The notes under the pieces were generated by a model, which saw only the letters and a program-made list of their open reading frames with translations, made no database searches and was not told the DNA's origin. From the IMG/VR virus record IMGVR_UViG_3300025652_000059, positions 1,497 to 65,496 of that record: 64,000 bases of DNA; one strand, given 5' to 3'. This document shows positions 16,023 through 63,761 of the stretch, in pieces. The stretch's first letter is position 1. Every line of letters starts with the position of its first letter. Source of the DNA: a virus. Lineage: Duplodnaviria; Caudoviricetes. The position numbers and the translations under genes are program-made.

Positions 16023-19000
16023 CTAGCTTTCTAGCTGTATTGTCCAACCAGCATTTCTCAGTGCGGCCAGTTTGTTTCCAGTAGATAAATCTCCTGTTGT
16101 TCCATCATTAATCAATCTACTTTCAGTCAAATGATCGCCAGAGTCTGCGTTTTGACCGAGTAAGTTTATAATGACCCCACCCCTTTTTCTCAGAAGATAG
16201 TTCTCATATAAGTCATTGATCAGTGATGTCCCAACGCCACCTGGAAGTTTATTGTTTTTCAGATTAAGTCTAGTTAAGTATTTATTTAGTGCTAGACTGC
16301 CTGATACATATCCTGAAATCTGATTGTCTTGTAATCTAATATTCCGTAAATTTCCACACTGCGAGAAGTCTGGAAAATTTCCAGTAAATTTATTGTTGTT
16401 AGCCCAAACACGAAAAAGATAAGGTAAGTTCCATGTAGGGAACTGGCCCGGTATGGTATTATTTTCAAGATATAACCATTGCAATCTTGGATTATTCCAT
16501 GCAGGTAAGATCTCATCCAATCCTGCTGTCAATACTTTATCATATCCATCTGGTCTAACTGTTCCAGTTCCTGTTATACCGGAAAGATTGGGTGCGGCAG
16601 GAGCATAAAAGCTGTAGTTTGCATAACTGCCAGCCGCAGAATGATCTACATACTCTGAAATGTTTGCCTTGTTTTGTCCAGTGATAGTATTCCAATCGTC
16701 TACACTAGTGGTGCCGATATCGTATATTCTATATCTCTTACCCTGTACGAGTGAAGTAGTTGCGATAGGTACTGCTTGATATATAAAGGTATCCCCTACC
16801 GCAGGTTGTGTTCCGCCACTTGTCCCCTGACTCTCACCAGTAACTGGATTCACATTCGTCCAACCAATATCCGCCCACATCTGTAGGCTATTATTGGAAC
16901 CGTGATTTAGATTTGCCTGATTATAAAAACTTACAATAGTATGCTTAACACCCGGCTGAGCCCATCTTACATGAAGATTAGACCTATTGTTCTTGAAATT
17001 CATGTAATATAGTTTAGTATTATTTGTAATATCTGGTAGCTTACCAGTCACTCCTCCACTAGCACCGTACAGTACCCTCAGGTTCAGATTACTAGATAGA
17101 TCTAAGAACTTTGTATCGTCTACACTATCTACGAATCTAATACACGCTCTATCCATATTATAGATATATAATCTTTCTAGATCAACTAGTGACTTGAGAG
17201 ATTTCCCAGTAAATCCATTATCGCCATTTATGCCTAAAAAGTCATTACTACTCATACCATATGTGGCCCCTGCGATGTAAAGCCTTCGTATCTTAGTAGT
17301 ATTCGGGCCGAATACTGAGTCACTAAGCCTAGCATCCATATGAGTATATCTAACATCGATAGTTGACAACTCTGGCTTGTCATTAAACATACCATTTTGT
17401 TGCCAATCACCAAGACAATTAGAAGCAAGCATATTAAATGTTACTAGTGCAGGGCAGTTATCAAACTTGGCATTAACTGTTCTTTCTGCTTTTCTTATGC
17501 CGCTACGCATATAATTTCTATTATTATCATATGTATGAAGCTTCGTTTTACCAGACATATTAATGATGTTATGCGAACCTCTACTTGTTCTATTATTAGT
17601 TGATACAAACTTAGTTATCTCTGTGCTTCTAAGTGTTATTGCTCTATCAGATGATAGCGCATCTCTCTGTGTATTACTGGTTCCACTTGCTGTGTAAATA
17701 GGTAATTCTGAATTTGTCTCCAACTCAGAACTCGCAAACTCTAATTCTTCCACCTTAGAACTAGTCATAATCCCTATAGGAAGTTGCTGATAAAATGGTT
17801 GATTCTCTATCGAGTATTTCTTTATCCCTCTAGTATCGTCATATAAAACCTCGCCTGTAGCAGGGTCTGCTTTCTTAAAGCAATGTGCGCCAGGGTCACT
17901 AGATTGAAGAGATGTTATTTCCGTTTGGCTTGGGTGTGTATATATTTTTGCTAGTTGAATACCGCCAGGACTATTACCATGTAGCTTTAGATAATATAAA
18001 CTACCTGGCACTAGTCCAGAGCCAATTGCTCCGTCTGGATAGCCAGTTGGTATTTCTATTGTTCCATCCGAAGCTTCTCTTGCTCCGTTGAAGTATTTAA
18101 CACAGATATAATCGTCTGTATTAGGACTACCTGGTGCATATAGCGCATCCATCCAAACGTCATCATCGTGATCAAGTTCTATTAGGTTGTTAGCGGTAGC
18201 ATAATGGAATCTTCCCCAGTCATGGAATCCAGAATTAGCTACAGTCGTATCGACAACTGCGGGCATAACTTTTCCACCAGTCATTCTTCTTCTTAGATCA
18301 CTACCGTAGGTTACACCCATGCTGAAATTTTCTAAGTTGACGTATTGCGTTAAGTCTACCTCAGTAGAATCTTTAAAGCATCCATTAACAGTTATCTTTT
18401 TCATTGTTAGTGGAAGTCTATTCAACTGTGCATTTGCAGTTGAATATAACGCATTATCGTTATTAGTTAAATTTGTACTACCCTGTAGAGATAACTCTGC
18501 TCTGGCTAGGTTGTTTCCAGTAAGATTTATCTCTTCAAGTGTCGGCGCTAAACCTGCGGTAGACGTAAGTCCATGTTTTGCGGCACCAATTGCTTCAATG
18601 TCATCTCTAAACTCAGGCATAACTGCTAAGTCATTCTTTTCAAAACTTAATATCTTCAAGTTGGGTAGACTAACATTAGTCCACTGTGAGATATTAGCAT
18701 CAATTATCTTGAACTGCTCTATCTTGCTTGGATTGTAGAAAAACTCTATTCGTCTAGGTCTTGATTGAGAGTCTCTAAATGCATATATTGCAGGATTAGA
18801 TAACGTCCCTGTTCCAACACTACCTGGATTTGCTGCCGTTCCATCACCACTATTAAACACAGTTGCAGAGTTATCTAAGTTGGTCACTCTCCATGTTATG
18901 GGAATTGTAGATCCACTACTATCTTGTATGCCAACTACACTAGCTGTAAGATCACAGTCTCTAAATGCAGATTCAAATACTAGAGGTATACCCTTCATCG

Positions 19001-59151: not shown

Positions 59152-60087
59152 CTAGTCTTCAGCTAGACTTTTGAAAAAGTCAAGAGAGTCGTCCGTTGAC
59201 TCTGAAGAGGTTGAGGATGAGGATGGGGCTTCAGCCTGAGCAACAGCAGGTGCCGCTCGCTCTTTAAAGTTTGGCTGAAACGCCATCCCCGCATTGCTGT
59301 CCTCGGCGGTCGCTACGGGTGCGTGTGAACCACCATCAAGTTGTAGAACTTTGTGCAGTTTTGCTTTAAGTTCTCCATAAGACTTGAAGTTTTTAGGATC
59401 AACAATTTCGGCTAGGGAGTGCTGTTTGTTCCATACTGCTTCCATATCTTCATCAGACAGTGCTTCACCATCAGTGTTAGCAATTGGAGCAGGAGTAGCA
59501 AACTCAGATTTGTCGTAGTTGCGATAGCCTTCTACTTGACGAATCTTTAGTTTGAAGTCAGCGCCTTCCCAGAAATCGAATGGATTGATTGGATCTTCAT
59601 CAGCGAACTGAGGATTCATAGCATCGTTCAGTTTGTCGAAGATTTTCTTACCAAATTTATACAAATAAACTTGACCTTCACGAGAAGGATTTGATGGATC
59701 AGATACGACCATTACATTAGCTACATAGCTAAGACGGCGTTTCTGTTTACGAGCAATCTCTTTGTCTTCATCATGACCAGAGTTCCACAACTGAGAGTTA
59801 TACTCAGATACTGGATCGTCTTGACTTAGAGTTGTTAGAGACTTCTCGATGTACCAACCACCTGGCCCTTGAAAGCCATGATCCCAATAGCGAACGAAAG
59901 GCATATCTTCGTTCTCAGAAGCGGGTAGGAATCGAAGTACAGCGTAGCCATTGCCAGCTTTATCGACTTCTGGTTTCCAGTAGTTGTCGTCACCTTTGGA
60001 CATTTTTTGATTTGACATTGATTGTAGTTGAGAGTTCAACTTATCAAAAGAGTTCGTACGGTTTTTCTTTAATGATGCAAAAGACAT
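59152..60087 (-). CDS. gp32: single-stranded DNA-binding protein gp32
   Basis: DKAGNGYAVLRFLP, HGFQGPGGWYIE, YKFGKKIFDK, NYDKSEF and acidic tail DDSLDFFKSLAED. Confidence 0.97.
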   Translation of the reverse strand: MSFASLKKNRTNSFDKLNSQLQSMSNQKMSKGDDNYWKPEVDKAGNGYAVLRFLPASENEDMPFVRYWDHGFQGPGGWYIEKSLTTLSQDDPVSEYNSQLWNSGHDEDKEIARKQKRRLSYVANVMVVSDPSNPSREGQVYLYKFGKKIFDKLNDAMNPQFADEDPINPFDFWEGADFKLKIRQVEGYRNYDKSEFATPAPIANTDGEALSDEDMEAVWNKQHSLAEIVDPKNFKSYGELKAKLHKVLQLDGGSHAPVATAEDSNAGMAFQPNFKERAAPAVAQAEAPSSSSTSSESTDDSLDFFKSLAED

Positions 60088-60174: not shown

Positions 60175-60751
60175 GAACTATTTTCTTCATTTTCACTTTA
60201 TCATAATCTAAAAAAGGTTTATAGTTGTTAACAGTCTTATTTATATCAGGGAAAACTATGGTGTCACGAATAGTCTTCTCCCAATACTTAAAGCATCCAG
60301 TGAGTTCATCAATGATAATCAATGTCTCAATGCATACCCTTCTTCTGTTGAACAGAGATAGGAGTTTTGGATATTCTCCATCTTCGACAACAATGTTGGC
60401 ATTGAAGTCATCGTCTAACTCATCTAAATCATTCTTAAATGTGTAAGTCAATGACTGTTGCCTTTTTGACCACTCAGTATAGACTTCATCTGCTTCATGA
60501 CTGTCTATTAAGTTGCCAATCCAGAGATCAGGCTTCTTTAATATATTCGCTAGAATATAATCTTTAGCATCTTTCCTCTTAGATAACTTATAGAAAAAGA
60601 ACTTATCTTTTCTATTTTCAAATCCATCGACAGTAAGTCTCATCTTACCGCCATACTTCACAAAGTCATAAGTTGATGTGAAATGCTTCTTGATTGCCAT
60701 GTAGTAACTATAGAGTTCGAACGCATCTCTAGTAGAATACATTGAACTCAT
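60152..60751 (-). CDS. gp59: helicase loader gp59
   Basis: YMAIKKHFTS.YDFVKYGGK, FENRKDKFFFYKLS and YKPFL. Confidence 0.95.
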   Translation of the reverse strand: MSSMYSTRDAFELYSYYMAIKKHFTSTYDFVKYGGKMRLTVDGFENRKDKFFFYKLSKRKDAKDYILANILKKPDLWIGNLIDSHEADEVYTEWSKRQQSLTYTFKNDLDELDDDFNANIVVEDGEYPKLLSLFNRRRVCIETLIIIDELTGCFKYWEKTIRDTIVFPDINKTVNNYKPFLDYDKVKMKKIVLDKYSNT

Positions 60752-60999
60752 ACAGGTAATCTCACAAGTTTCTCGACCATGTTTAACTCTTCAGCTTCTT
60801 TGTAAATGTTTGCTTTTAGAAGAGGCGACTTACGAATAATCTCACCAACAACTTCGATTTCAAGACCATTCTTCTCAGCGTACTCGACTACTGCGTCAAT
60901 ATAGGGCACACCTGCGTCAATGTGTCTCTTTATATCTAGCATTATACGCTCAGAGTTTAGTCTGTTAAGTAATTTAAGGTCACCCTTCTTATCACCCAT
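60748..60999 (-). CDS. gp33: late transcription coactivator gp33
   Basis: YIDAVVEYAEKNGLEIE...LKANIYKEAEELN...RLPV. Confidence 0.92.
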   Translation of the reverse strand: MGDKKGDLKLLNRLNSERIMLDIKRHIDAGVPYIDAVVEYAEKNGLEIEVVGEIIRKSPLLKANIYKEAEELNMVEKLVRLPV

Positions 61000-61201
61000 T
61001 TAGAACCTTTATCCCTAACGCCCAGTTCTCTGCGGCATCTTCAGCCCACTGTAGAGACTTACGCTCATGTAGTTCAGTTGACACTAGTGTGCCACGAGGA
61101 TCGTAGTACTCAATTCTCCAACCATTATCAGCTTCAAAGATAAGTGCTTGAGCGTTGCCCGCTTCTTCAACCTTGATTCTTCTACTAACTAGTTTAGACA
61201 T
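60992..61201 (-). CDS. hypothetical protein
   Basis: 69 aa ending KSLQWAEDAAENWALG, coupled between dsbA and gene 33. Confidence 0.75.
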   Translation of the reverse strand: MSKLVSRRIKVEEAGNAQALIFEADNGWRIEYYDPRGTLVSTELHERKSLQWAEDAAENWALGIKVLNG

Positions 61202-61205
61202 AATA

Positions 61206-61475
61206 CTATCCTATAGTTTCGAGTAATGCTTCGATGTCTTCGATCTCAGAGATCAACTCAGACACATTTTCTTTATGATAAATTTTAGCCATTTTAGCTA
61301 GGTACTTTTTAGGGATATCAACATCATCAGAGAGTGAGACGATAGCTTCTTTAATGAAGTCTCGTTCAGCATCGATGCGAGTATAAGATGCACTGATCTC
61401 ATTCATAGCGCCTTTGATGCGTTGCTTATCAGAGTCTGACGATGGTAGAATAATAGAGTTTGTTGGTGTTGTCAT
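61206..61475 (-). CDS. dsbA: double-stranded DNA-binding protein DsbA
   Basis: EISASYTRIDAERDFIKE...IPKKYLAKMAKIYHK; T4 gene order dsbA-33-59-32. Confidence 0.88.
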   Translation of the reverse strand: MTTPTNSIILPSSDSDKQRIKGAMNEISASYTRIDAERDFIKEAIVSLSDDVDIPKKYLAKMAKIYHKENVSELISEIEDIEALLETIG

Positions 61476-61499
61476 AGTATAAGTTCCATATCAATTAAA

Positions 61500-61667
61500 A
61501 GAAGGGGCCCGTTTTGAGTAACACTTATCGTTGGAATCTACCAACTGTGTCGTCTCTTCGCAATCCATGCTAACTAGCATCCATGCCTGTGGTGGGCCAA
61601 GCCACACTCCTCTTTAGTTATTGACATTTTCGAATTTCCTTTTTCGGGTATGTCGTACCTCTCTTCT
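61500..61667 (-). ncRNA. unassigned structured RNA candidate (~170 nt)
   Basis: Intergenic. Closing stem AGAAG/CUUCU, several internal hairpins and a possible GGCCC/GGGCC pseudoknot. Confidence 0.55.
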
Positions 61668-61699
61668 ACACATACTGTTATCATACTTTGTATATGAGA

Positions 61700-61993
61700 A
61701 GTCGTGTGGACAACTTCTGTTGCTAGGCGTGTCCAGACCCCGGTAGATTATGCCGCTAGGGCAAAATCACCATGTGCAAAATTATTATCGTTTGCGATTA
61801 TTTTATTAGCTTCTTTAGTCGGGAACTCCCAACCCTTACAGTCTTTAGCATTGACTGATTCTCCACATAACCTCAACCGTCTGTCGAATCCAGAGCGTCC
61901 CCATCATAAAAACACTAAACAATGCTCTTATGGTGGAGACGAGGGGAGTCGAACCCCTGTCCAAACAAATCTACTTTATGCTTCACTGAATAC
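61700..61993 (-). ncRNA. ssrA: tmRNA, circularly permuted two-piece (alphaproteobacterial-type) gene
   Basis: Acceptor piece ...GGACAGGGGTTCGACTCCCCTCGTCTCCACCA ends at 61931. A 28-nt intervening hairpin follows. The coding piece starts GGGGACGCTCTGGATTCGAC at 61902. Acceptor stem has G3.U70; tag ORF present. Outer boundaries are approximate. Confidence 0.95.
61748..61795 (-). other. tmRNA proteolysis tag reading frame (A)ANDNNFAHGDFALAA*
   Basis: ATAATC-GCA AAC GAT AAT AAT TTT GCA CAT GGT GAT TTT GCC CTA GCG GCA TAA. Confidence 0.93.
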
Positions 61994-62213
61994 TTTTATT
62001 GACTTTTTTGTACAGAACTTCGTGCTGTTCTCGTAACCAATCGTCATACACGCAATCACTAAATTCATCTTCAGTCATTGCGGTTAAACTGTCAATATAC
62101 ATATTAAACGAAAGAAATGATCCACTCATGCCAGTTGCTATATCCATAGGCTTTGCAATTTGTTCCAGTGCATCAATTCTACTTTTAAGTTCACTCAATA
62201 CTTCACTTCTCAT
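61983..62213 (-). CDS. hypothetical protein
   Basis: 76-aa ORF whose stop codon overlaps the predicted 5' end of the tmRNA acceptor piece. Confidence 0.65.
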   Translation of the reverse strand: MRSEVLSELKSRIDALEQIAKPMDIATGMSGSFLSFNMYIDSLTAMTEDEFSDCVYDDWLREQHEVLYKKVNKSIQ

Positions 62214-62234
62214 AATATACTCTCATCGAATGTC

Positions 62235-62534
62235 TTATTTATACTCTTGCTCTTTTCTCAACTTCAGCAACCATGAGTCGCCTCTACGTTCAGCATCATA
62301 AAAGACTGCCGCTGTAAATGTAGCCATGAACAACAATACAAAGTGAATAACAAGGCTTATGCCCATATAGATTACGCTACCAATGTAGATTCCAAACGTG
62401 ATTGACCACATCCAAGCTAGAACAGTCATTATCCACATTCGTGATAATGGATCTGGGATATGTCTTAGCGGGTTCTTGCTATGGTCAAACAGCCAATTAT
62501 AAAAGTCATAGAACTTTAAAAACATCAACTTCAT
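62235..62534 (-). CDS. membrane protein (NPLRHIPD family of marine phages/bacteria)
   Basis: NPLRHIPD...VLAWMW motif, two TM helices and GGAG SD. Confidence 0.75.
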   Translation of the reverse strand: MKLMFLKFYDFYNWLFDHSKNPLRHIPDPLSRMWIMTVLAWMWSITFGIYIGSVIYMGISLVIHFVLLFMATFTAAVFYDAERRGDSWLLKLRKEQEYK

Positions 62535-62570
62535 AATATTTCTCCATTATATATCTTGCTTATGTGTGTA

Positions 62571-62599
62571 ATTATAGCACGGTGTAGCCGATTTGTCAA
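62571..62599 (-). promoter_or_regulatory. consensus sigma70 (early) promoter upstream of the membrane-protein/tmRNA unit
   Basis: TTGACA-17 nt-TATAAT with extended -10 TG. Confidence 0.9.
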
Positions 62600-62602
62600 G
62601 TA

Positions 62603-62707
62603 TTATGTGACTAAATTATATCCCATATAGAATAGGGCTAACCAAAGTAATCCCTTGATTAGAAAGAATGAAAATGTGAATAGTAGCAGTTGCGTTGTTC
62701 TCTTCAT
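62603..62707 (-). CDS. small hydrophobic protein (34 aa)
   Basis: MKRTTQLLLFTFSFFLIKGLLWLALFYMGYNLVT; ATGA overlap with the glutaredoxin-like gene. Confidence 0.6.
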   Translation of the reverse strand: MKRTTQLLLFTFSFFLIKGLLWLALFYMGYNLVT

Positions 62708-62985
62708 AAGATAAATTTCAACCATTCCTTAAAGTCGTCTAAATTACCGATGTCTTGTCCATCAACCATTATCTGCGGTACATTCTCTGCACAAGGAAAT
62801 AGATCCATCAACTCAAGTAGATTATAATCTTTACCAAAGTCAAGATACTCTACATCTAATCCTGCGAATGTCGCCCAAGCGTATAGTGTCGCTGATTCAT
62901 CGCTACCCTTCATCCCATACAGCGTTGCTTGAGGTGGTAGCTTATAACTTAATATCTCGTCTTCGAACTTTATATGGCACCCCAA
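62704..62985 (-). CDS. glutaredoxin-fold protein lacking the CxxC motif
   Basis: LYGMKGSDES...VEYLDFGKDY...NVPQIMVDGQDIG..DDF. Confidence 0.75.
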   Translation of the reverse strand: MGCHIKFEDEILSYKLPPQATLYGMKGSDESATLYAWATFAGLDVEYLDFGKDYNLLELMDLFPCAENVPQIMVDGQDIGNLDDFKEWLKFIL

Positions 62986-63001: not shown

Positions 63002-63682
63002 TTATTTAATTTCTGGAAACAAACACTTCTGTATAAAAACATCAACATCATCTTCATCAAGGCCCAGTGACTTCATTACACGAGGTGTATGAGGATTCTG
63101 TTTCTGATAGAAAGCATAGCGATTTTGCGCTACTATTCCCTCACTATCTTCACTGTTACACCAATAGTCACCTACGTTATTCAGATAGTACAGCAAAGAT
63201 TGCTCAACTGCATCAGATATCTGGTTTATCTCGTCTTGCTCTTTGACCATCCCTGCCGCTATCATTCCATCACTGAAGATCGCTTGCGCCCATTCAGGAA
63301 GCTCACGCTCTCTTTTCCATTCCAGCTTTGATGAAATATTCCCAAACGTCTTGATCATTTCGTGATCAGGATTCGTTGTCGCTGATAGATCACAGAATGC
63401 TCCTGTCATCTTGTTGGGACCCGCTATTACATCGAATCCAAAGATAGGAGCATCACTGTCTGTGTGAGGGAATACGCAAACGTGCATCATCCAGAGCTTA
63501 CTAGACTCTCTCATATCGACTACATCAATATGGGCTCTTCTATAGTTCTTACTCGTCCAGACTCTGTTGACCCAACCCGGTTGATTGAATCGCTCCATAC
63601 CCTCTTCTTGGATCTCTGTTCCAGTGAACTTAAATAACTCAATGATATCGTTCTGGATATCAATTAATCTGCTCCATATCAT
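63002..63682 (-). CDS. pcyX: ferredoxin-dependent bilin reductase, PcyX type
   Basis: MIWSRL, GMERFN..GWVNRVW...RRAHIDVVD...LWMMH, PIFGFDVIAG, RELPEWAQAIFS and QKQNPHTPRVM. Start at MIW is more likely than the ORF-track start. Confidence 0.9.
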   Translation of the reverse strand: MIWSRLIDIQNDIIELFKFTGTEIQEEGMERFNQPGWVNRVWTSKNYRRAHIDVVDMRESSKLWMMHVCVFPHTDSDAPIFGFDVIAGPNKMTGAFCDLSATTNPDHEMIKTFGNISSKLEWKRERELPEWAQAIFSDGMIAAGMVKEQDEINQISDAVEQSLLYYLNNVGDYWCNSEDSEGIVAQNRYAFYQKQNPHTPRVMKSLGLDEDDVDVFIQKCLFPEIK

Positions 63683-63683
63683 A

Positions 63684-63761
63684 CTATTCATCATCGCCCT
63701 CGCGTAACACGAACCAGATCCACATGAGCACTAGCGCAACTATAACAACTTGTATGTCCAT
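63684..63761 (-). CDS. small single-TM peptide (25 aa)
   Basis: MDIQVVIVALVLMWIWFVLREGDDE; TGATG-coupled upstream and stops 1 nt before pcyX. Confidence 0.55.
   Translation of the reverse strand: MDIQVVIVALVLMWIWFVLREGDDE

Follow-up and report, generated by a model that had tools for sequence, protein, structure and literature searches.

The stretch of DNA analysed here, called the window, comprises 64,000 nucleotides (nt) of the 65.5-kb uncultured viral record IMGVR_UViG_3300025652_000059 (positions 1,497 to 65,496), which belongs to a marine T4-like phage and in which T4-type genes lie on the minus strand together with a structured RNA element, situated between a permuted (two-piece) transfer-messenger RNA (tmRNA) gene and the dsbA gene. 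Coordinates are window positions on that strand unless stated otherwise. To judge from the sequence comparisons presented below, minus-strand 61503-61702 is a real, conserved, non-coding structured RNA region of ~200 nt. A sequence-only reading had earlier recognised an unassigned structured RNA at 61500-61667; its placement on the minus strand between tmRNA and dsbA is borne out, and its downstream limit agrees with the end of the element (~61503), but the element begins ~35 nt further upstream, at 61702, which is 3 nt past the last alpha_tmRNA position (61705).

The tmRNA gene and the dsbA operon

The permuted tmRNA gene, of the alpha type, spans 61705-62028 as modelled by ARAGORN and Rfam. 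ARAGORN calls a tmRNA* at 61657-62023 with the tag ANDNNFAHGDFALAA, the end of the call reaching 11 nt into the interval of the sequence-only reading, and places the tag reading frame and its stop codon at 61748-61795 (coding part 229-276 of the gene). The Rfam model tmRNA_permuted scores 106.2 bits over 61748-61992, stopping at the tag stop (61748), and beta_tmRNA scores 86.2 bits over 61695-62028, while the 3' part of alpha_tmRNA, in a search limited to 61476-61750, aligns to 61705-61750 and then stops. Of the pseudoknots in a canonical alpha-type coding piece the last, PK2, lies at 61708-61741 (GGGGU/GCCU and GGACA/UGUCC, with the loop GCAACAGAA); it was aligned to the last 50 positions of RF01849 and its pairing was drawn by eye. 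Between the tag stop (61748) and the ATG of dsbA (61475) there are 272 nt, of which the tmRNA models reach only the first ~45. The dsbA gene (61206-61475; Pfam PF11126, 38.2 bits) is the first of dsbA-33-59-32, and the genes after it encode a gp33-like late-transcription coactivator, gp59 and gp32 (PF16805, PF08993 and PF08804), in the order that had been proposed.

Architecture of the element

The region is a row of separate modules, HP-A, PK3b and the core. It had been described as one closed domain held by a long-range stem, AGAAG..GGU/GCCCCUUCU, whose letters are indeed present, but AGAAG pairs locally with ACUUCU and the 3' partner varies, so that the long-range stem is unsupported, AGAAG having a conserved local partner in HP-A. 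This hairpin (61663-61702; ACUUCU-CAUAUAC ... GUAUGUG-U-AGAAG) keeps its base CUUCU/AGAAG in groups A-C of the relatives, with the interior replaced, reads ACUUCUG-UUCU-CAGAAGU in the L008 group (L numbers denote loci of the comparative set), and is missing from 13 of 34 distinct relatives. The module PK3b (61623-61659) consists of the hairpin GGUA-CGACA-UACC, the inner hairpin CGAA-AAAGGAAA-UUCG and a strand AUGUC pairing back to GACAU; the strands GGUA/UACC and GACA/UGUC are invariant, and the inner hairpin varies, its loop keeping GGA. PK3b can be a small pseudoknot (GGUA/UACC and GACA/UGUC) or a plain hairpin, both of which fit equally. The pairing GACAU..CGAA/UUCG..AUGUC of the sequence-only reading is accordingly present and conserved, its inner CGAA/UUCG giving way to GAA/UUC and, in L010, to CACA/UGUG, but its outer strands are uninformative, as they never vary.

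The core consists of a purine tract with the letters GGAG and, after it, an H-type pseudoknot whose loop 3 holds one to three hairpins. The conserved tract, AAAGAGGAG (61607-61615), is present in 28 of 28 distinct cores and stands 1 nt from S1 in the window and 0-6 nt from it in relatives. The 5' half of the pseudoknot (61589-61605) reads S1a GUGG (61602-61605), L1 CU, S2a UGGCCC (61594-61599), L2 A and S1b CCAC (61589-61592), and loop 3 then holds the hairpins H1 (GGCAUGGAUGCU, 61576-61587) and H2 (AGCAUGGAUUGC, 61560-61571), which occupy 61560-61587 and have (U)GGA(U) loops, and H3 (61516-61556), a long bulged hairpin that is optional and missing from the 7 short cores. The A-rich end of loop 3, CAAAAC (61511-61516), runs into S2b GGGCCC (61505-61510), closing the core at 61505-61516 with the invariant letters AACG at the junction; the sixth S2 pair in the window is U-C. 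From S1a to S2b the core of the window measures 101 nt, and the smallest cores (L078, L010 and the L009 group) measure ~45 nt. The pyrimidine-rich tail and dsbA ribosome-binding region that follow (CUUCUUUUAAUUGAUAUGGAACUUAUACU, 61476-61504) differ among relatives and change with the downstream gene.

H1 and H2 form a 16-nt duplication, seen in 4 distinct cores. At least one (U)GGA(U)-loop hairpin is found in 34 of 34 distinct sequences, on stems that differ (GCAU/AUGC, AGCA/UGCU, GAGA/UCUC). The helix AUGCU/AGCAU that had been proposed here is possible only in the 4 sequences with the duplication; the others keep a single hairpin of this kind, and by homology H1 and H2 are the better reading. 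The letters UGGAUU(C) of the H2 loop (61560-61571), also found in the H hairpin of the L009 group, equal the tmRNA D-loop letters CUGGAUUCGAC (61881-61891), a coincidence that may be due to chance.

Comparative set and covariation

A DsbA search of viral contigs gave 45 loci, 19 of which, besides the window's own record (L046), match the tmRNA-to-dsbA stretch by blastn, 16 of them at 78-100% identity and the remaining 3 (the L023 group) over only 79 nt at 75%. Scans with tag-coding patterns added viral loci (among the matches listed) and 38 metagenome stretches, which brought the set to at least 73 loci with a tag of the type AND(N/D)NFAHG(D/N)(F/Y)ALAA and at least 36 distinct post-tag sequences, of which 34, with at least 250 nt, could be examined. 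The core is found in all 34 distinct sequences of this FAHG-tag clade among the matches listed, in the consensus order AAAG(A)GGAG, S1a GUGG, two letters, S2a UGGYYC, A, S1b CCAC, one to three hairpins, an A-rich stretch ending in AAC, and S2b GRRCCA; group E has the variants GAGG or UAGG in S1a and CCUU in S1b.

Covariation of the core was counted over 14 pairs in 28 sequences (24 distinct), that is 311 cells, and compared with 500 shuffles. The cells are paired in 99.0% of cases as against 94.5% in the shuffles, none of which reaches the observed value, and shifting the 3' partners by 1-3 columns leaves only 21.8-55.9% of the cells paired; taken separately, S1 is paired in 97.9% and S2 in 99.3% of cells. 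Changes on both sides occur at 4 of the 14 pairs, which 5 of the 500 shuffles match: the S1 pair 3-17 is UA in 21 sequences and AU in 3, the S2 pair 11-101 is UA in 20 and CG in 4, the S2 pair 12-100 is UA in 18 and CG in 6, and the S2 pair 9-103 is GC in 22, AU in 1 and GU in 1. The S2 helix runs through the series GGCCC:GGGCC (window, L002, L004, L053), GGUCC:GGACC (L006, L124) and GGUUC:GAACC (most sequences), and L295, with UAGUUC:GAACUA, repairs a G-U present in L078; a mismatch in S1 is seen in L284, a single contig. The sequence-only reading had paired GUGG with CCAC around a loop complementary to the 3' end (GGCCC:GGGCC), and this is confirmed as a pseudoknot by covariation. Its bulged helix GAG..GACAC..GUUGG/CCAAC..GUGUU.CUC (61516-61556), the H3 of the present description, likewise holds up: in a set of 16 distinct sequences, 4 of its 9 predicted pairs have compensatory changes, so that among the collected homologues S1, S2 and H3 all covary. 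The compensatory changes, together with the invariant unpaired letters, argue that the fold is under selection.

Distribution, modules and neighbouring genes

The core is confined to one phage tmRNA clade, with the tag AND[N/D]NFAHG..ALAA. A covariance model of the core was run on the window and on 99 of 246 loci without the FAHG tag (780,875 bases), a set that included dsbA loci without tmRNA, loci with the tag ANDNNFALAA and the OM43 myophage Melnitz; the window was the only match (68 bits, E 2.5e-14), five others being noise at 17-19.5 bits (E 0.1-0.41), and a regular expression found no core in the remaining 147 of the 246 loci. Exact short-core and tag patterns, whose scope excludes diverged copies and the long core, gave 0 matches in 185,579 prokaryote species (one genome each). 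Blastn of 61400-62100 against 50,697 phage records, a collection from which near relatives may be absent, returned only three short T-arm matches, and tblastn of DsbA against phages returned 22 records, all below 40% identity and none informative on the element. A loose core pattern hit at least 118 loci among the viral contigs; these were set aside as chance matches, none of those listed passing the full-core expression.

Between PK2 and the core, the 34 distinct sequences carry HP-A and PK3b in 21 cases, PK3a in 11, PK3a and PK3b in 1 and no module in 2, and ~17 nt separate PK2 from the core in L078, the smallest relative. A T-run within 10-20 nt after PK2 was noted in L009-L013, L010, L289, L301, L303, L304 and L319; the window is without such a run. 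Upstream of the tmRNA, several relatives (L009:2238-2321, L011, L012, L013, L015) have a tRNA-Leu gene with anticodon TAG. The gene that follows the core is dsbA in 25 of the 34 sequences and an unrelated gene of ~221 amino acids (aa) in 9, the junction lying directly after S2b, and the sequence between core and start codon is not conserved, changing with the downstream gene. The ~221-aa gene (M-K-V/I..P.PGI.VYDDVF, no Pfam family) sits between element and dsbA, at L006:2309-2974 and likewise in L112, L124, L283, L293, L294, L299, L315 and L317.

Tests for known families, coding and termination

The sequence-only reading had held that the element belongs to no known family and is not a tRNA, and both statements stand. 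A whole-window Rfam scan at the gathering threshold returned tmRNA models only, and Rfam 15 at E<=10, applied to 61400-62100 and 61476-61750, gave nothing beyond tmRNA models and chance-level matches, namely DUF2815 inside the element (14.2 bits, E 5.8, within 61625-61660) and, outside it, ceN44 (14.7 bits) and Plastid-psbl-rps4 (13.5 bits); no tRNA gene was detected in the window. Nor did Rfam find any riboswitch or leader family in the window or in 10 relatives. The glutamine riboswitch models RF01739 and RF01704, for which Melnitz served as a positive control (52.8 bits), had no match in the window (E<=10) or in the 10 relatives (E<=1).

A small protein-coding gene was rejected, as the core is without an open frame in 20 of 34 sequences and the open frames of the others differ, and so was the 38-aa open reading frame (ORF) of the window (61491-61607), or a leader peptide, as this ORF is without a counterpart in relatives. 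Pairing of the purine tract with the 3' tail was not counted; it is possible in many sequences by mere purine-pyrimidine complementarity, and the tail is not conserved. No intrinsic terminator was detected on the minus strand in 60700-62800, there is no conserved U-run after a hairpin, and in the 9 sequences that precede the ~221-aa gene no U-rich tail follows S2b. The lone terminator-like site of the scan is on the plus strand at 61588-61606, where the complement of S1 is followed by CTCCTCTTT (the complement of the purine tract), and is probably a by-product, since no plus-strand gene lies nearby.

RNA-library contigs and transcription

Ten sequencing runs holding part of 61200-62600 are recorded as RNA, and contigs of four RNA runs, from four studies, were compared with the window. 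Contigs from three studies cover 61460-61876: those of X4 span 61465-61615 and 61586-61718 without differences, that of X7 spans 61460-61663 with 2 differing letters, and that of X8 (61596-61766, no differences) is the sole one to bridge the modelled tmRNA end, on each side of which it extends for 31 letters or more. The dsbA body and the acceptor piece are without RNA contigs, from which no conclusion is drawn. These data hint, no more than weakly, that RNA containing the element exists and that it runs on without a break from the coding piece. Co-transcription of the element with the tmRNA is plausible, because on the minus strand between tag and dsbA there is no sigma70-like promoter above 9/12 matches and no terminator-like site, and because the X8 contig bridges the two.

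Further upstream, a sigma70-type promoter, TTGACA-17-TATAAT (62571-62599, 12/12 matches), is likely to be the start of a transcript with two small ORFs, the tmRNA and the element. The two ORFs (62235-62534 and 61983-62213) have no Pfam match, and as the stop codon of the second adjoins the tmRNA gene at its 5' end, the tmRNA is apparently excised from an early mRNA. Beyond them lies a gene for a ferredoxin-dependent bilin reductase (63002-63694; PF05996, 69.6 bits), a pigment-synthesis enzyme, here in a T4-like carrier whose tmRNA is of the alphaproteobacterial type and which may not be a cyanophage.

Interpretation of the element

The sequence-only reading had offered two roles, a phage non-coding RNA transcribed and processed together with the tmRNA or a cis-regulator or attenuator of the dsbA operon, and both stay in play as candidates. 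The favoured reading, adopted tentatively and with somewhat less than even confidence, is that the element extends the tmRNA coding piece by pseudoknots peculiar to this lineage. Standard tmRNAs carry PK2-PK4 after the tag, whereas alpha-type two-piece tmRNAs keep only PK2. The element would be transcribed as the 3' trailer of the permuted tmRNA gene and would re-expand the post-tag pseudoknot row (PK2-PK4) of standard tmRNAs, giving the coding piece a compact, nuclease-resistant 3' end and helping it to fold; we infer that it stays in the mature coding piece, where its role would be structural. This extension is favoured by the position of the element immediately past the alpha_tmRNA end with no intervening promoter- or terminator-like site, and by the presence of the core in all 34 sequences of the clade although the following gene differs. 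In addition, S1 and S2 provide, with covariation, an H-type pseudoknot after the tag frame, as in tmRNA, and the serial pseudoknots, short linkers, gain and loss of modules and junction right after S2b resemble the arc of a standard tmRNA, four pseudoknots per tmRNA being typical according to a 2025 tmRNA database paper.

A number of observations weigh against an extension. The models RF04321, RF01849 and RF01850 end at 61748, 61705 and 61695, with nothing in 61476-61700 aligning to them, and the invariant GGAG tract and conserved GGA loops are not known tmRNA features, which suggests a binding partner. Phages with the ANDNNFALAA tag end their tmRNA at PK2 and pass directly into the gp33-like gene, the L023 group has the tmRNA, ~70 nt and then dsbA, and L067 too ends at PK2; since these sister clades stop at PK2, the extension is dispensable for a phage tmRNA. 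In 10 of the 34 distinct relatives (groups D and E) a T-run lies directly 3' of the PK2 hairpin, for example GAGGCATTTTTTG, and L012 has a shorter one (CACTTTTTG), missed by the pattern and seen by eye; these runs look like termination at the canonical tmRNA end, ahead of the element. The start codon of the next gene is always 22-35 nt past the core, a spacing that fits a leader as well as a trailer. The fold of the window is by itself unexceptional (181 nt; minimum free energy -44.1 kcal/mol, z -1.32, 17 of 200 shuffles as stable), and as a single sequence folds no better than its shuffles, the case for more than chance is comparative only. The carriers, in turn, are all close kin (tmRNA and trailer 78-88% identical by blastn), so that adjacency to the tmRNA may reflect shared ancestry, and the independent changes behind the core covariation number perhaps three or four. 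As to RNA, the contigs are assembled, have depths of 3-8, may include DNA carry-over and do not reveal RNA ends.

Some of the same observations fit a cis-regulatory leader of dsbA-33-59-32, whose pseudoknot and GGAG/GGA sites would bind a ligand or protein and set translation, read-through or processing, a possible but doubtful reading. The element does stand in the 5' untranslated region of the next gene at the short distance just given; its conserved unpaired letters (GGAG, the A of L2, AAAC) belong to a compact pseudoknot with an embedded hairpin; the ribosome-binding GGA of dsbA often lies in a small hairpin loop, such as AUAUA(GGAC)UAUAU; Melnitz has a true glutamine riboswitch in the equivalent slot; and the T-runs of groups D and E point to a tmRNA able to end ahead of the element. 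Yet neither the window nor the 10 relatives match a riboswitch or leader family, the variable sequence from core to start shows no conserved alternative pairing with the ribosome-binding site, and dsbA homologues without tmRNA, as well as the L023 group with tmRNA, are without the element; an attenuator, in particular, is disfavoured by the U-rich tail missing in the 9 sequences with the other gene and by the lack of a minus-strand terminator-like site. As the carriers all descend from one arrangement (tmRNA, element, dsbA), the evidence does not discriminate between a tmRNA extension and a dsbA leader. A more specific proposal, which we consider unlikely, is that the 45-nt core (GGAG tract, S1/S2, GGA-loop hairpin, A-rich loop 3) is a new switch class, riboswitch or protein-responsive element, which in the slot of the Melnitz riboswitch would couple the state of the infected cell to late-transcription gene expression or to release of the tmRNA from its precursor.

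It is improbable, too, that the element is a separate stable small RNA cut from the tmRNA precursor and displaying GGA/GGAG sites, whether to capture an RNA-binding protein of CsrA/Rsm type as a decoy, to imitate ribosome-binding sites, or to be cut by a nuclease that is specific for GGAG, as T4 RegB is. Each module has a GGA in a hairpin loop though the stems differ, as in the inner hairpins of PK3, gaa(AAAGGAAA)ttc, gaa(GAGGAA)ttc, caca(GGA)tgtg and gaca(GGA)tgtt, and in the H hairpins gca(TGGAT)tgc, gagca(GGA)tgctt and gaga(TGGAT)tctc, to which the single-stranded GGAG tract is added; ACAGGAUGU in L010 and L013 resembles the CsrA selection consensus, and the RNA-library contigs of three studies cover the element. 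Against shuffles, however, the 4 GGA motifs of the window, 3 of them in loops, are not significant in number or loop placement (P 0.22 and 0.14), and no Rfam CsrB/Rsm family matches. CsrA (PF02599) was not found in this 65-kb record, in a 62-kb relative (both ~36% complete) or in the complete Melnitz genome, nor was RegB (PF10715) found in this record in a search without a positive control; an alpha-type tmRNA points to hosts in which CsrA is not known to be common. Least credible is that the element insulates the late-transcription genes from the tmRNA or weakly terminates transcription ahead of them, or that it is a structured duplication relic without specific function. The pyrimidine-rich run CCUUCUUUU after S2 in the window and some relatives, the plain tandem duplication of H1/H2 and the duplicate-like appearance of PK3a and PK3b agree with it, but no minus-strand terminator-like site was detected, the U-run is missing in many relatives, and the compensatory changes and invariant unpaired letters point to selection on the fold.

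Novelty, significance and comparison with known systems

The motif is not in Rfam 15, and no description of it surfaced in a survey, mostly at the level of search listings, of the literature on two-piece phage tmRNA, pelagimyophage tmRNA and Pelagibacter CsrA; the clade may figure in the supplementary tables of PMC9004378, where phages that have two-piece tmRNAs and riboswitches are listed. What is new is a pseudoknot module attached to a phage tmRNA, with a modest chance of a new regulatory RNA class, and the motif could enter Rfam from the present alignment. Phage two-piece tmRNAs are common in marine phages. Were the element an extension of the coding piece, pseudoknots would be regainable at the free 3' end of a two-piece tmRNA, and the natural series of 45-200 nt would allow the purpose of such pseudoknots to be tested. 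A leader or a decoy would instead mean an undescribed regulatory RNA at the point where, in abundant ocean phages not yet cultured, early transcription meets the late-transcription machinery (DsbA, gp33).

Like the PK2-PK4 of a standard one-piece tmRNA, the element contributes to a row of H-type pseudoknots right after the tag, whose number and size vary by lineage, but unlike them it lies outside every curated permuted-tmRNA model and has an invariant GGAG tract and GGA loops. With CsrB/RsmZ decoys and CsrA-bound leaders it shares several GGA in the loops of short hairpins and one single-stranded GGAG, whereas its sites number only 3-5 and are embedded in pseudoknots, and Rfam gives no match. 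The leader pseudoknot of T4 gene 32, an autoregulatory operator, is likewise an H-type pseudoknot within the dsbA-33-59-32 cluster; the present element, by contrast, is upstream of dsbA and ~1.4 kb from gene 32 (59152-60087).

The closest parallel in position is Melnitz, for which PMC9004378 describes a two-piece tmRNA beside a late-transcription coactivator and a glutamine riboswitch in the ssrA 3' domain. In the Melnitz record (MZ577097, L047) alpha_tmRNA ends at 16391 and RF01739 matches at 16399-16447 (52.8 bits, cut-off 35), behind which come the Shine-Dalgarno letters GGGGAG and a 32-aa ORF (16470-16568) that the record leaves unannotated; in its place the record has an antisense coding sequence (16493-16594). 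Both elements occupy the slot right after an alpha-type permuted tmRNA and ahead of late-transcription genes, and some relatives of the present element show a short resemblance, GUUCA-CC ... GAAC. The window, however, has no RF01739/RF01704 match and reads GGCCCA and not GUUCA, its CCAC pairs upstream, in another topology, and the E-loop letters GGAAGUA are missing, from which it follows that the element of the window is not a glutamine riboswitch. More likely than controlling the tmRNA, the Melnitz riboswitch controls the downstream 32-aa peptide, and this arrangement indicates that an independent sensor can be housed directly behind the alpha-type tmRNA of a phage; were the present element a leader or a decoy, the two cases together would make of this slot a place where such phages install sensors.

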